From Escherichia coli (GTDB lineage Bacteria > Pseudomonadota > Gammaproteobacteria > Enterobacterales > Enterobacteriaceae), in NCBI RefSeq assembly GCF_003334815.1, contig NZ_QOWO01000030.1: a DNA stretch of 51,530 nucleotides; one strand, 5' to 3'. A program made the position numbers and the translations under genes. Numbering within the stretch: position 1 is the stretch's first letter; every line of letters starts with the position of its first letter. The notes under the pieces were generated by a model. It had not been told where the DNA came from and made no database searches. It saw nothing but the letters and a program-made list of their open reading frames with translations. This document shows positions 2,341-51,530 of this stretch, piece by piece.

Positions 2341-3298
2341 GTTGTAATCGTTGTTGCTGAAGGGTCGGCTGGGTTATCCGATGGATGAGTACATCAATCG
2401 CCAGCTCCCCCAGTTCATCTTTCGGTTGGTGGATAGTGGTTAATGGTGGCGTCATAAAGCTTGCCAGTTCGATATCGTCATAGCCAATCACCGCGATATC
2501 CTGCGGAACCTGTAACTCTGCCTGATATAACGCCTGGTAAACGCCAACAGCCATAGCGTCATTTCCGGTAAAGACGGCCTGAGGACGCAGCGGATGTGAT
2601 AGCAGTTGGCGCATAGCGTCAAACCCGCCGTTAAATTCAAAATCACCAGTGACTTCATAGCCATCAGGAATGTTGAGACCCGCACGTTTCATCGCCGCCC
2701 GATAACCTTCCAACCGCAGGCGCGCCGGAGTTTTATCCAGCGGGCCGGTAATACAGGCGATACGGGTATGACCTTTATCGATCAGATATTGCGTTGCTAA
2801 GTCTCCGCCCAGCAACGAGTTATCCTGAATAAGATCGCTGTCGCCATCGAACGGAGCCCAGTCCATCATCACAGTAGGCACTGTCGGATAACGTTGCATG
2901 ATTTCACGCGAAGGTTGATGCGTTTCGGTGCACAGTAACAGCAAGCCATCAACGCGTTTTTGCATCAGCGTTTCCAGATTGCGATTCATCCGCTGTTCAT
3001 CGCCTTCGGTATTGCAAAGGACGAGACTATAACCGCGTTCGAAGCAGCTGCGTTCAACGCCACGCACCAGTTCTGAATAGAAAGGATTGGTACTGGCAGT
3101 GATCAACATGCCAATGGTATGTGTTTGATTGAGTTTGAGGCTACGCGCCAGAGCTGATGGCGCGTAATTGAGTTCTTTAATCGCCGCTTCAACTTTGGCG
3201 GTAATCGCTTCACTGACGAAGCGATCTTTATTGATAACGTGAGAAACTGTTGAGGTAGAAACGCCCGCCAGGCGGGCAACATCTTTCATTGTAGCCAA
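2306..3298 (-). CDS. rbsR: ribose operon repressor RbsR (LacI family)
   Basis: 330-aa ORF; N-terminal LacI-type HTH ([23 protein letters not shown]); last gene of the rbs cluster; 3' end overlaps hsrA 3' end convergently. Confidence 0.95.
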
Positions 3299-3301
3299 GC
3301 G

Positions 3302-4231
3302 TCACCTCTGCCTGTCTAAAAATGCGTCGATCTCTTCACGCCACGGTACGGAAGGTTGTGCGCCTTTACGTGTTACGGCAATCGCAGCGGCAGCATGGGC
3401 AAAACGAATCGCCTCTGGCAATGGTTTTTCTTCCAGCAATGCCGTGATTAACGCACCGTTAAAGGTATCTCCGGCAGCAATGGTATCGACAGCCTGCACC
3501 CGGAATCCAGGAACGCGCTGACCTTCACCATTCACGCTAGCCCATACACCACGACTTCCTAAAGTAATCAGTACAGTACGGATACCTTTTTCATGCAGTA
3601 CCTGCGCCGCCTTCGCTGCATCTTCATCATTTTCAACACGAATACCGGTGAGCTTTTCTGCTTCCGTTTCGTTTGGCGTAATAATGTCCACCAGCGCCAG
3701 CAGTTCGTCAGGAAGTTCGCGAGCCGGAGCCGGGTTAAGCGCAACGATAGTCTTATTTTGATGGGCGATTTTCGCCGCTGCCATCACACTTTCGAGTGGT
3801 GATTCCAGCTGCATTAATAATGCTGACGCGTTGGCAATACGCTCACGTTGCGCTTCCACCAGCGCCGGGGAAAGGGCAGCATTAGCGCCGGCATGAATAC
3901 CGATGACATTCTCACCTTCGCCATTAACAAAAATCAGCGCCACACCTGTTGATTCGCCTTTGATCACGCTGACCGGAGTAATATCAATGTTATCAGTGGC
4001 GAGCTGCTGGCGAACGCTCTCACCAATGCTGTCATCACCCGTACAGGCAATAAACGCGATATTCGCACCGCTACGCCCAGCAGCCACAGCCTGATTCGCG
4101 CCTTTGCCGCCAAATGCAACCTGATAGTGGTTACCGGTTACGGTTTCGCCTGGAGTAGGAAAAGATTGAAGATTAAGAATGTGGTCAGCATTAATGCTGC
4201 CAAGAACAACGAGGCTGCCTGCGTTTTGCAT
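3302..4231 (-). CDS. rbsK: ribokinase RbsK
   Basis: Track ORF 3302..4258 (318 aa); start placed at internal Met (MQNAGSLVVLGSINADHIL) giving 309 aa as for E. coli RbsK; PfkB-family GG and DTxxAGD motifs present. Confidence 0.92.
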   Translation of the reverse strand: MQNAGSLVVLGSINADHILNLQSFPTPGETVTGNHYQVAFGGKGANQAVAAGRSGANIAFIACTGDDSIGESVRQQLATDNIDITPVSVIKGESTGVALIFVNGEGENVIGIHAGANAALSPALVEAQRERIANASALLMQLESPLESVMAAAKIAHQNKTIVALNPAPARELPDELLALVDIITPNETEAEKLTGIRVENDEDAAKAAQVLHEKGIRTVLITLGSRGVWASVNGEGQRVPGFRVQAVDTIAAGDTFNGALITALLEEKPLPEAIRFAHAAAAIAVTRKGAQPSVPWREEIDAFLDRQR

Positions 4232-4356
4232 ATTCGGGATGTCCATAAAATGCGCCACCGTGTTAGGGTGGCGCGTGCCCTGCTTTTCTTTATATTACAC
4301 GTTCATCTGTCGATGACGTATTTATGTCACCATCAGGTCATACAACCTGATTAAAA

Positions 4357-5247
4357 CTACTGCTTAACAACCAGTTTCAGATCAACCGGATACTTAGCCT
4401 GAACTTTCTCGCCTTTCAGCACTTTATCTGCGGTTTCGACGCCTTTCGCGCCAATCTGATCGGGTAGCTGAGCGATAGTCGCTGCTAGTTTGCCATCATT
4501 CACCGCTTTTTCGCCATCCGGTGTACCGTCAAATCCGACGACCATCACATCCGATTTACCGGCAGTTTGCAGTGCGCGCAGCGCGCCCAGCGCCATTTCA
4601 TCATTCTGCGCGAATACAGCCTGAACATCCGGATGAGCGGTCAACAGGTTCTGCATTACGTTCAAACCTTTAGTGCGATCAAAATCTGCTGGCTGGCTGG
4701 CAAGAACATTAAACTTGTGAGCAGCAACGGCCTGCTGGAAGCCTTCGCCACGTTCACGGGCTGCGGATGTACCAGCAATGCCTTGCAGCTCGATAACTTT
4801 GGCACCTTCACCCGCTTTCTTCGCGATGTAATCACCAGCGATTTTGCCGCCCAGTACGTTATCAGAAGCAATGTGGCTCACCACTTCACCTTTCGTTGCC
4901 TGGCGGTCAAGAGTGATAACCGGGATGTTCGCCTGGTTAGCCATCTTCACAGCATTACCCACTGCGTCGGAGTCGGTCGGGTTAATCAGCAGAATTTTTG
5001 TGCCGCGAACGGTTAAGTCCTGCACGTTCGCCAGCTCTTTCGCCGGGTTGTTCTGGGAGTCCAGCACCACCAGGTTATAGCCAAGTTTATCCGCCTCTTT
5101 CTGCGCGCCATCTTTCAGCGATACAAAGAACGGGTTGTTAAGCGTGGAGACCACCAGCGCGATGGTGTCTTTTGCCATCGCATTCGCACTGACGGTGGCG
5201 CTTAGCGCAACAGCGGAAACCAGGGTAGCCAGTTTTTTCATGTTCAT
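4357..5247 (-). CDS. rbsB: ribose ABC transporter periplasmic binding protein RbsB
   Basis: Track ORF 4357..5253; start set at the third codon ([23 protein letters not shown] signal peptide) giving 296 aa. Confidence 0.93.
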
Positions 5248-26024: not shown

Positions 26025-26324
26025 GCGCGTGTGACCCGTCCTGAATAGCGTTCACATAGATCCTGCTGATATAAAACCCCCCTGTTTTCCTGTTTATTCA
26101 TTGATCGAAATAAGAGCAAAAACATCCACCTGACGCTTAAATTAAGGTACTGCCTTAATTTTCTGCAGACAAAAGGCGTGACGATGGTCGAAAATGGCGC
26201 TTTCGTCAGCGGGGATAATCCGTTATTGAACAATTTATCCTCTGTCCATTTCACGATGAAAAAAATGTAGTTTTTTCAAGGTGAAGCGGTTTAAATTCGT
26301 TCTCAAATTACAGTCAGGACGCGT

Positions 26325-50041: not shown

Positions 50042-51289
50042 TTAGCCAAATTTAGGTAACACGTTAAAGACGTTGCCGAACCAGCACAAAATCACGGTTA
50101 TACCAAAGAGAATGACAATCGCCGGAATAAGATTGCCGCCCCAGACCGTGAACATCTGATTGGGAAACTTCTTGCGAGCTTTGATTGCAAGCACTGCGGG
50201 AATAATGACCGCCCAGATGGTGGCGCACAGCCCGGCACCGCCGATCCCGTAAATAAAGCCGTTCGGGAAGATCAGATACAACAACGCAGGTGGCAGGAAG
50301 GTTAACAGCACGGTTTTGAAACGCCCGCCGTGGGAGTTATCAATCTTAAACAGGTCCGCCAGATAATCGAACAACCCCAGCGTGACACCAAAGAACGAAC
50401 TGGCAACAGCTAAGTTAGAGAACACCAGCAGGCAAAACTCGATAATGCCGTGCTGTTTGGTGCCGAGGAACGATTTCACCAGCGAATCAACGTTGCCGCC
50501 TGAGGAGATAATCGCCTTAAAGCTTTCTCGCGGAATATTCCCCATGGTGCAATAGAGCCAGAAGAGATAAATCACCAGCGCCAGCAGCGAACCAAATACC
50601 ACGCTTTTGATTAACTTATCTTTGCGTTTTCCATAGCAAATAATCAGGCTGGGAATATTGCCGTGGAAACCAAATGACGCCAGACACACCGGCAAAGCCA
50701 TAAAGATATACGGGAAGTAAGACGTTCCCGCAGTGGAGCTGGTGGCGTCGCGCAGAATGGAGTAATCGACCTGGAAGAAAAAAGAACCAAACACGATCAC
50801 AAAGGAGATAATCTTCAGCCCGAGGAACAATGAGGTAATACGACTGGCGGCTAACGAACTTAACCACAATACGCTGGCAACGAAAATGGCTGTGCAGATC
50901 CCGACAATACGTGGATTAGCGTGATAACCCAAATTCATTGATATCGTTTCACTAATGATCGCACCATTAGCAGAGATATAGGCATAAGTGAGGATATAGA
51001 GAACGAAGGCAACGGTAATACCGCTGATAATGTTCCAGGTGTTACCGATTAAATCTTTGGTGATGGTGTTAAAACTGGAGCCGACGGGATAATTTAAATT
51101 TGCTTCTAATAACAATAACCCGGAATGAAGCATTGAAAACCAGGCAATGATAAGGATAAAGGCACCCCAGAAAAACCAGGCACCGGCAAGATCAACAGGT
51201 AAAGCAAACATACCTCCACCAATTACTGTACCTGCTATAACCATAACACCCCAAAATGCAGAGTGCTTTTTTTCAGCTTGATCAGTCAT
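50042..51289 (-). CDS. tnaB: low-affinity tryptophan permease TnaB (HAAAP family)
   Basis: 415-aa ORF starting MTDQAEKKHSAFWGVMVIAG; aromatic amino acid permease family; separated from mdtL by about 130 bp. Confidence 0.93.
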   Translation of the reverse strand: MTDQAEKKHSAFWGVMVIAGTVIGGGMFALPVDLAGAWFFWGAFILIIAWFSMLHSGLLLLEANLNYPVGSSFNTITKDLIGNTWNIISGITVAFVLYILTYAYISANGAIISETISMNLGYHANPRIVGICTAIFVASVLWLSSLAASRITSLFLGLKIISFVIVFGSFFFQVDYSILRDATSSTAGTSYFPYIFMALPVCLASFGFHGNIPSLIICYGKRKDKLIKSVVFGSLLALVIYLFWLYCTMGNIPRESFKAIISSGGNVDSLVKSFLGTKQHGIIEFCLLVFSNLAVASSFFGVTLGLFDYLADLFKIDNSHGGRFKTVLLTFLPPALLYLIFPNGFIYGIGGAGLCATIWAVIIPAVLAIKARKKFPNQMFTVWGGNLIPAIVILFGITVILCWFGNVFNVLPKFG

Positions 51290-51340
51290 GATGCCACCTT
51301 TAGAGGAAGGCTATTTTTGTTATTGAGGATGTAGGGTAAG

Positions 51341-51369
51341 AGAGTGGCTAACATCCTTATAGCCACTCT
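51341..51369 (-). other. stem-loop in the tnaB upstream region
   Basis: agagtggcta / tagccactct perfect 10-bp inverted repeat with a 9-nt loop, about 55-80 bp upstream of the tnaB ATG. Confidence 0.5.
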
Positions 51370-51530
51370 GTACTGAGAGATCCCCTCATAATTTCCCCAA
51401 AGCGTAACCATGTGTGAATAAATTTTGAGCTAGTAGGGTTGCAGCCACGAGTAAGTCTTCCCTTGTTATTGTGTAGCCAGAATGCCGCAAAACTTCCATG
51501 CCTAAGCGAACTGTTGAGAGTACGTTTCGA

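Follow-up and report, generated by a model that had tools for sequence, protein, structure and literature searches.

The IS10 transposase is poorly translated, and in Tn10 biology Dam methylation has a role at the inside end of the element. In Tn10 of plasmid R100 (NC_002134.1), IS10-Left and IS10-Right differ at 15 positions, 6 of them in the 81 nt nearest the inside end. ISVsa5 is treated as a synonym of IS10R (PMC10885879), and a relaxed IS10 target consensus, N-Pu-C-N-N-N-G-Py-N, is quoted in PMC4574204. PMC11481808 places the promoters pIII and OUTIIp within IS10 nt 1000-1230, and that source and PMC4574204 describe them as reading outward and able to drive adjacent genes.

Solo IS10 insertions with 9-bp target duplications are common in Escherichia coli. 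IS10 matches number in the thousands in complete E. coli genomes, and both of the solo copies that we examined in detail (strains C9 and 2017.06.05CC) have clean 9-bp duplications; the copy in the 3' part of tnaA in 2017.06.05CC is a precedent. Strain 2017.06.05CC is a human isolate from Viet Nam, and its element represents an independent IS10 insertion at the 3' end of the tna operon (locus positions 2830-4158).

Here we describe an IS10 junction in the same operon, found at the edge of a stretch of E. coli DNA that we refer to as the window and that is the complete draft contig QOWO01000030.1 (GCA_003334815.1; 51530 bp). The oddity on the tnaB side of the window is an ordinary insertion-sequence junction, neither a new gene nor a divergent tryptophanase. 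It involves a textbook insertion sequence that is already known, present as a 100% identical copy at a new but unremarkable site.

Results

Identity of the sequence beside tnaB

The window from 51372 down to 1 is colinear with MG1655 3890153 to 3941524, with six substitutions and no gaps, a stretch that holds tnaB, mdtL, yidZ, the bgl, pst and atp operons, oriC, the rbs operon and yieP. The MG1655 tnaA stop codon ends at 3890145, so that the alignment begins 8 nt after it; a normal tnaA 3' end, the ordinary outcome that the sequence-only reading had kept in view, is not what was found, as no part of the window aligns to MG1655 upstream of 3890153. The features of the junction are as follows.

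50042..51289, minus strand: tnaB, low-affinity tryptophan permease of 415 aa, intact and with 100% DNA identity to MG1655
51290..51372, minus strand: native tnaA-tnaB spacer, 83 of 90 nt kept, identical to MG1655 3890153-3890235 and including the tnaB ribosome-binding region
51341-51369, minus strand: hairpin in the spacer predicted by RNA folding, with a 10-bp stem (AGAGTGGCTA / TAGCCACTCT) and a 9-nt loop
51364..51372, minus strand: presumed 9-bp target TACAGAGTG, native to the tnaA-tnaB spacer and abutting the IS10 tip
51373..51395, no strand assigned: IS10 inside-end terminal repeat, CTGAGAGATCCCCTCATAATTTC on the plus strand, same as the R100 inside end
51373..51530, minus strand: match to the IS10-Right/ISVsa5 3' (inside) end, nt 1172-1329 of the 1329-bp element; the contig stops within the element
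51386..51529, minus strand: C-terminal 47 codons and TGA of the IS10 transposase (IS4 family), 47/47 by BLASTP

Beyond the spacer, the stretch 51373-51530 (158 nt) matches the inside end of IS10-Right, named ISVsa5 at NCBI and ISfinder, from Tn10 on R100 without a single difference. The R100 copy matched at 100% is IS10-Right, the one that adjoins tetD, and the matched part is its inside end. At the six positions in this region that discriminate between the two IS10 copies (30, 49, 58, 59, 62 and 81 from the inside end), the window carries the R-type base in every case. The characteristic inside-end sequence CTGAGAGATCCCCTCATAATTTCCCC... is present as in the R100 IS10R, with its terminal base at window position 51373, and a GATC (Dam) site lies inside the terminal repeat at 51379-51382. 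A megablast search of plasmid sequences with window 51376-51530 as query found 1166 records spanning most of it, around 900 of them at 99% identity or more, and the matched plasmid records all fall under genes annotated as 'IS4-like element ISVsa5 family transposase'.

The protein-level comparison gives the same picture. A minus-strand open reading frame at 51499..51386 translates to MEVLRHSGYTITREDLLVAATLLAQNLFTHGYALGKL followed by a stop, and the frame remains open up to the window edge, reading RNVLSTVRLGMEV... (RNVLSTVRLG...) from 51529. Its TGA stop occupies 51388-51386 and the tnaB ATG is at 51289, with 96 nt between them. All 47 residues are identical by BLASTP to residues 356-402 of the 402-aa IS10R transposase of R100, and the 37-aa reading frame listed earlier is part of this frame, starting at an internal Met. 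The full-length R100 reference transposase matches the NCBIfam model NF033591 (IS4 family transposase) with 404 bits; the 47-aa fragment alone, which carries residues 356-402 only and has the catalytic region off-contig, matched no NCBIfam model.

The sequence-only reading had described a minus-strand frame open to the edge and stopping shortly before tnaB, with stops in the remaining two minus-strand frames, and both points agree with our reading of the sequence. It had also remarked on rare codons, and cga, tta, cgg, ata, agg and cta can be read directly from the frame; these codons reflect a poorly expressed mobile-element gene. The TnaA C-terminus that it gave was correct, since MG1655 TnaA ends in ...TYEPKVLRHFTAKLKEV and the stop, and its doubts about its own reading and about this reference sequence were unnecessary, as both were accurate. 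In comparison with MG1655, the native TnaA C-terminus ...EPKVLRHFTAKLKEV with its stop is absent from the window. The mismatch with TnaA that had been noticed is thus real, the frame being the C-terminus of the IS10 transposase, and of the explanations offered it was 'a different gene or scar next to tnaB' that described the case, the reading frame being the last 47 codons of the IS10-Right transposase.

From these identities we conclude that the last 158 nt of the window are, with very high probability, the inside end of IS10-Right together with the last 47 codons of its transposase gene, lying beside tnaB. The junction cannot be that of an intact Tn10, since the inside end, not the outside end, faces host DNA.

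The target site in the tnaA-tnaB spacer

The tnaA stop codon and the first 7 spacer bases (TTAATAC) are absent from the window and the retained spacer starts with TACAGAGTGGCTATAAGG. The IS10 tip is therefore placed 7 nt past the normal tnaA stop, in the 90 nt that separate tnaA from tnaB and at the base of the hairpin, and the transposase gene is co-oriented with tnaB. The hairpin has no T-tract after it, and the IS10 target overlaps its 5' arm; it may stabilise the 3' end of tnaA mRNA or be a site of its processing. A scan of the window against Rfam found nothing at the junction. The window's only Rfam match is the enterobacterial sRNA STnc410 (26084-26241, minus strand, 188 bits) in the atpC-glmU intergenic region.

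In MG1655 and 52F4 the empty site is uninterrupted and lies between intact tnaA and tnaB genes, reading ...TTAATTAATAC TACAGAGTG GCTATAAGG..., with one copy of the 9-mer; the window also contains a single occurrence. The 9-mer fits the relaxed IS10 consensus, as would about 1/64 of random 9-mers. In strain C9 (NZ_CP010129.1) an IS10R between nagE and nagB (locus positions 1321-2667) is flanked by a direct duplication of the same TACAGAGTG, an example that surfaced by ranking matches on their extension into the flank and is hence supportive and not statistically clean. The duplication of TACAGAGTG at the C9 nagE-nagB site as well suggests that this 9-mer is a favoured IS10 target. Taken together, the consensus fit, the C9 duplication and the single occurrence indicate that the join was made by transposase, in the correct register.

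The same junction is absent from 5426 complete E. coli genomes. The only full-coverage match to the junction among them is a different IS10 insertion, located inside tnaA.

Contig ends

The window is bounded by two repeats, namely IS10 at one end and the rrnC upstream region at the other, where the contig ends 284 nt upstream of rrsC. The upstream region of MG1655 rrnB has an exact copy of positions 1-77, and for rrnA the shared stretch is 83 nt long. The innermost R/L difference lies 81 nt from the tip, and adding 77 to this gives the 158 nt of IS10 in the contig. At both ends the contig seems to have been broken at a repeat in the manner of a de Bruijn graph with k = 77, a value that rests on an assumed assembler setting and that sits beside a sharing of 83 nt, not 77, with MG1655 rrnA. 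If k is 77, another IS10 copy with a different base at position 81, like IS10-Left, would be present, and the genome would have the R-type inside end once only.

Tryptophanase is not seen here because the window is a whole short-read contig that ends inside a repeated element; hence tnaA lies off the contig and is not shown to be divergent. A sibling assembly, DABAWY010000032.1, has the same private atpD alleles, covers window positions 85-51369 and stops 3 nt from the junction. An exact-protein look-up of TnaA (97,323 blocks) for a contig on the tnaA side returned standard tnaC-tnaA-tnaB contexts only. Similar look-ups of AtpD G103S and CbrC D164A returned contigs on the tnaB side only and none on the tnaA side, namely QOWO01000030.1, reached through the CbrC variant and matching the window exactly in its last 18.6 kb, and the contig of the sibling assembly.

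Strain background

Identity to MG1655 is 99.988% over the colinear part of the window. The nearest relative with a complete genome is 52F4, a Swiss calf isolate, with 5 substitutions in 51372 nt and the best 25-kb match. The six substitutions relative to MG1655 are as follows.

Window 4673: RbsB I192T, natural allele common to 52F4
Window 24296: atpD nt 147, silent, natural allele common to 52F4
Window 24456: AtpD G103S, private to the lineage or common only to a few draft assemblies
Window 37058: bglF silent change, private to the lineage or common only to a few draft assemblies
Window 38701: BglB D293A, natural allele common to 52F4
Window 43013: CbrC D164A, private to the lineage or common only to a few draft assemblies

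None of the 5426 complete genomes has both atpD changes together, and none has CbrC D164A. As three of the six non-MG1655 alleles are shared with 52F4, the strain, judged by its alleles, is a natural phylogroup-A relative of K-12, not K-12 itself. The draft genome GCA_039954105.1 (ABSPGA010000003.1) shares CbrC D164A and has an intact tnaC-tnaA-tnaB operon; it also has a premature stop in mdtL (Gln to stop near codon 330, locus positions 3594-4769) and five more private substitutions within 18 kb.

Discussion

Origin of the junction

We consider the most likely event, and a probable one, to be a simple insertion of a solo IS10R that left tnaA intact and uncoupled tnaB from the tna promoter. 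The IS10 transposase very probably joined the inside end to spacer DNA cut with a 9-bp stagger at TACAGAGTG; if this was a cut-and-paste insertion, the far side should show the IS10 outside end (CTGATGAATCCCC...) preceded by another copy of TACAGAGTG. The tnaA gene, if present, would then be found on another contig beyond IS10. The simple insertion predicts a partner contig with an intact tnaA and the 9-bp duplication, in which ...GAAGTTTAATTAATACTACAGAGTG is joined to CTGATGAATCCCC..., that is, ...AAAGAAGTTTAATTAATACTACAGAGTG to CTGATGAATCCCCTAATG....

The main rival, which we regard as unlikely, is that an intramolecular rearrangement mediated by Tn10, or inside-out transposition, gave rise to the junction. 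The inside ends of IS10R and IS10L would have attacked a nearby target with loss of the tet segment and with deletion or inversion of neighbouring DNA, in which some or the whole of tnaA may have been involved; alternatively, a replicon bearing Tn10 would have integrated. In either case tnaA would be truncated, displaced or absent, and the prediction is an IS10 end joined to a truncated tnaA, or an IS10L inside end joined to ...TTAATACTACAGAGTG. The finding that it is the inside end, not the outside end, that abuts the chromosome is what Tn10 deletions, inversions and inside-out events leave, but a solo IS10 also puts its inside end against the chromosome. Target choice follows the same rules in rearrangements, and a 9-mer that fits the consensus is therefore just as compatible with them. 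The 81 + 77 nt composition of the IS10 portion and the 77 nt shared with rrnB suggest one R-type inside end and an IS10L-like copy, a pattern that fits the product of a single-Tn10 inversion or inside-out event slightly better than a solo hop, and that is slightly unexpected for a solo IS10R hop from a still-intact Tn10; this argument, however, leans on the assumed assembler setting behind k = 77. Against the rearrangement, E. coli genomes hold far more solo copies than rearrangement products, a plain deletion leaves a single IS10 that the assembler should have crossed, and the window contains no tet or Tn10 interior sequence.

An origin in a laboratory K-12 strain with, or derived from, a tnaA::Tn10 linkage marker, the IS10 being a remnant of the marker, is very improbable. 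The near identity to MG1655 and the wide use of tnaA300::Tn10, which lies near dnaA, dnaN and recF, speak for such an origin. On the other side, RbsB I192T, the atpD nt 147 change and BglB D293A are shared with 52F4, which is closer than any K-12 genome, K-12 strains including C600 have the MG1655 atpD alleles, and the junction occurs in 0/5426 complete genomes, many laboratory strains among them. An intact Tn10, moreover, would show its outside end and not its inside end. We rejected the K-12 tnaA::Tn10 remnant on the grounds of the natural alleles common to 52F4 and of there being no closer K-12 genome.

An assembly chimera, in which IS10 was falsely joined to tnaB and the genome has a normal tnaA-tnaB junction, is barely credible. 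Mis-joins do occur at contig ends inside repeats, and the IS10 part amounts to just 158 nt, but the break falls exactly at the IS10 terminal base and beside a 9-mer that fits the consensus. The tnaA bases are absent, and the sibling assembly, whose contig ends differ, likewise breaks off no more than 3 nt from the junction without running into tnaA, which argues against a chimera.

A degraded or highly divergent tnaA 3' end, the latter an option of the sequence-only reading, has only its position upstream of tnaB in its favour and is rejected for the visible sequence, which has no alignment to MG1655 tnaA, is 100% IS10R at the DNA level and matches the transposase in 47/47 residues.

Possible effect on tnaB

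Under the preferred reading of a simple solo insertion, 1.3 kb of poorly translated IS10 DNA would part tnaB from the tna promoter and leader. As tna transcripts would need to cross this DNA, Rho-dependent polarity on tnaB is expected, and we infer that the normal tryptophan- and catabolite-controlled expression of tnaB should be reduced by it. What tnaB transcription is left would be due to read-through or to the IS10 promoters pIII and OUTIIp. Given the outward-reading promoters that the cited sources report near the IS10 inside end, tnaB may have low and unregulated expression; of IS10 nt 1000-1230, the window holds nt 1172-1230 only. A simple promoter scan found no consensus sigma-70 promoter at the junction, and a terminator scan found one weak terminator-like site within IS10R and no other. 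A hybrid promoter at the junction, also considered, is unsupported by these promoter and terminator scans.

We think it rather improbable that a Tn10-mediated deletion or inversion removed or displaced tnaA, giving an indole-negative isolate, or that tnaB is constitutively expressed from pIII/OUTIIp. If constitutive expression from these promoters were true, tryptophan uptake would be uncoupled from tna regulation. The tna operon is interrupted between tnaA and tnaB, with a possible drop in tryptophan uptake and indole output or a change in how tnaB is regulated. The significance of the locus is mainly one of annotation, in that an apparently missing or aberrant tnaA comes down to an insertion-sequence junction and a contig break. 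Where a draft contig ends in 100-200 nt of IS sequence, those nucleotides are not to be taken for the neighbouring gene.

Comparison with known IS10 copies

The closest described element is IS10-Right of R100, with which the window shares 158/158 nt, the terminal repeat, the GATC site, the six R-specific bases and the transposase C-terminus. The R100 inside end abuts tetD, whereas that of the window abuts the E. coli tnaA-tnaB spacer, and the contig shows no more than the final 12% of the element. The tnaA300::Tn10 marker is likewise an IS10-containing element at the tna locus, but there Tn10 is complete, the background is K-12 and both junctions show outside ends, in contrast to the inside end and the non-K-12 strain described here. 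The IS10R of C9 resembles the window in being an R-type element with TACAGAGTG as its flanking 9-mer, and differs in its unrelated locus and in that both of its junctions are visible. The tnaA IS10 of 2017.06.05CC (NZ_AP027790.1) is a full 1329-bp element in the same operon and the same orientation, its transposase gene running in the direction of tnaA and tnaB, and also in a natural isolate. It lies, however, 144 nt before the tnaA stop and so truncates tnaA, has the target duplication CGCAACATA, and is IS10-Left-like, with 2 differences from IS10-Left and 13 from IS10-Right.
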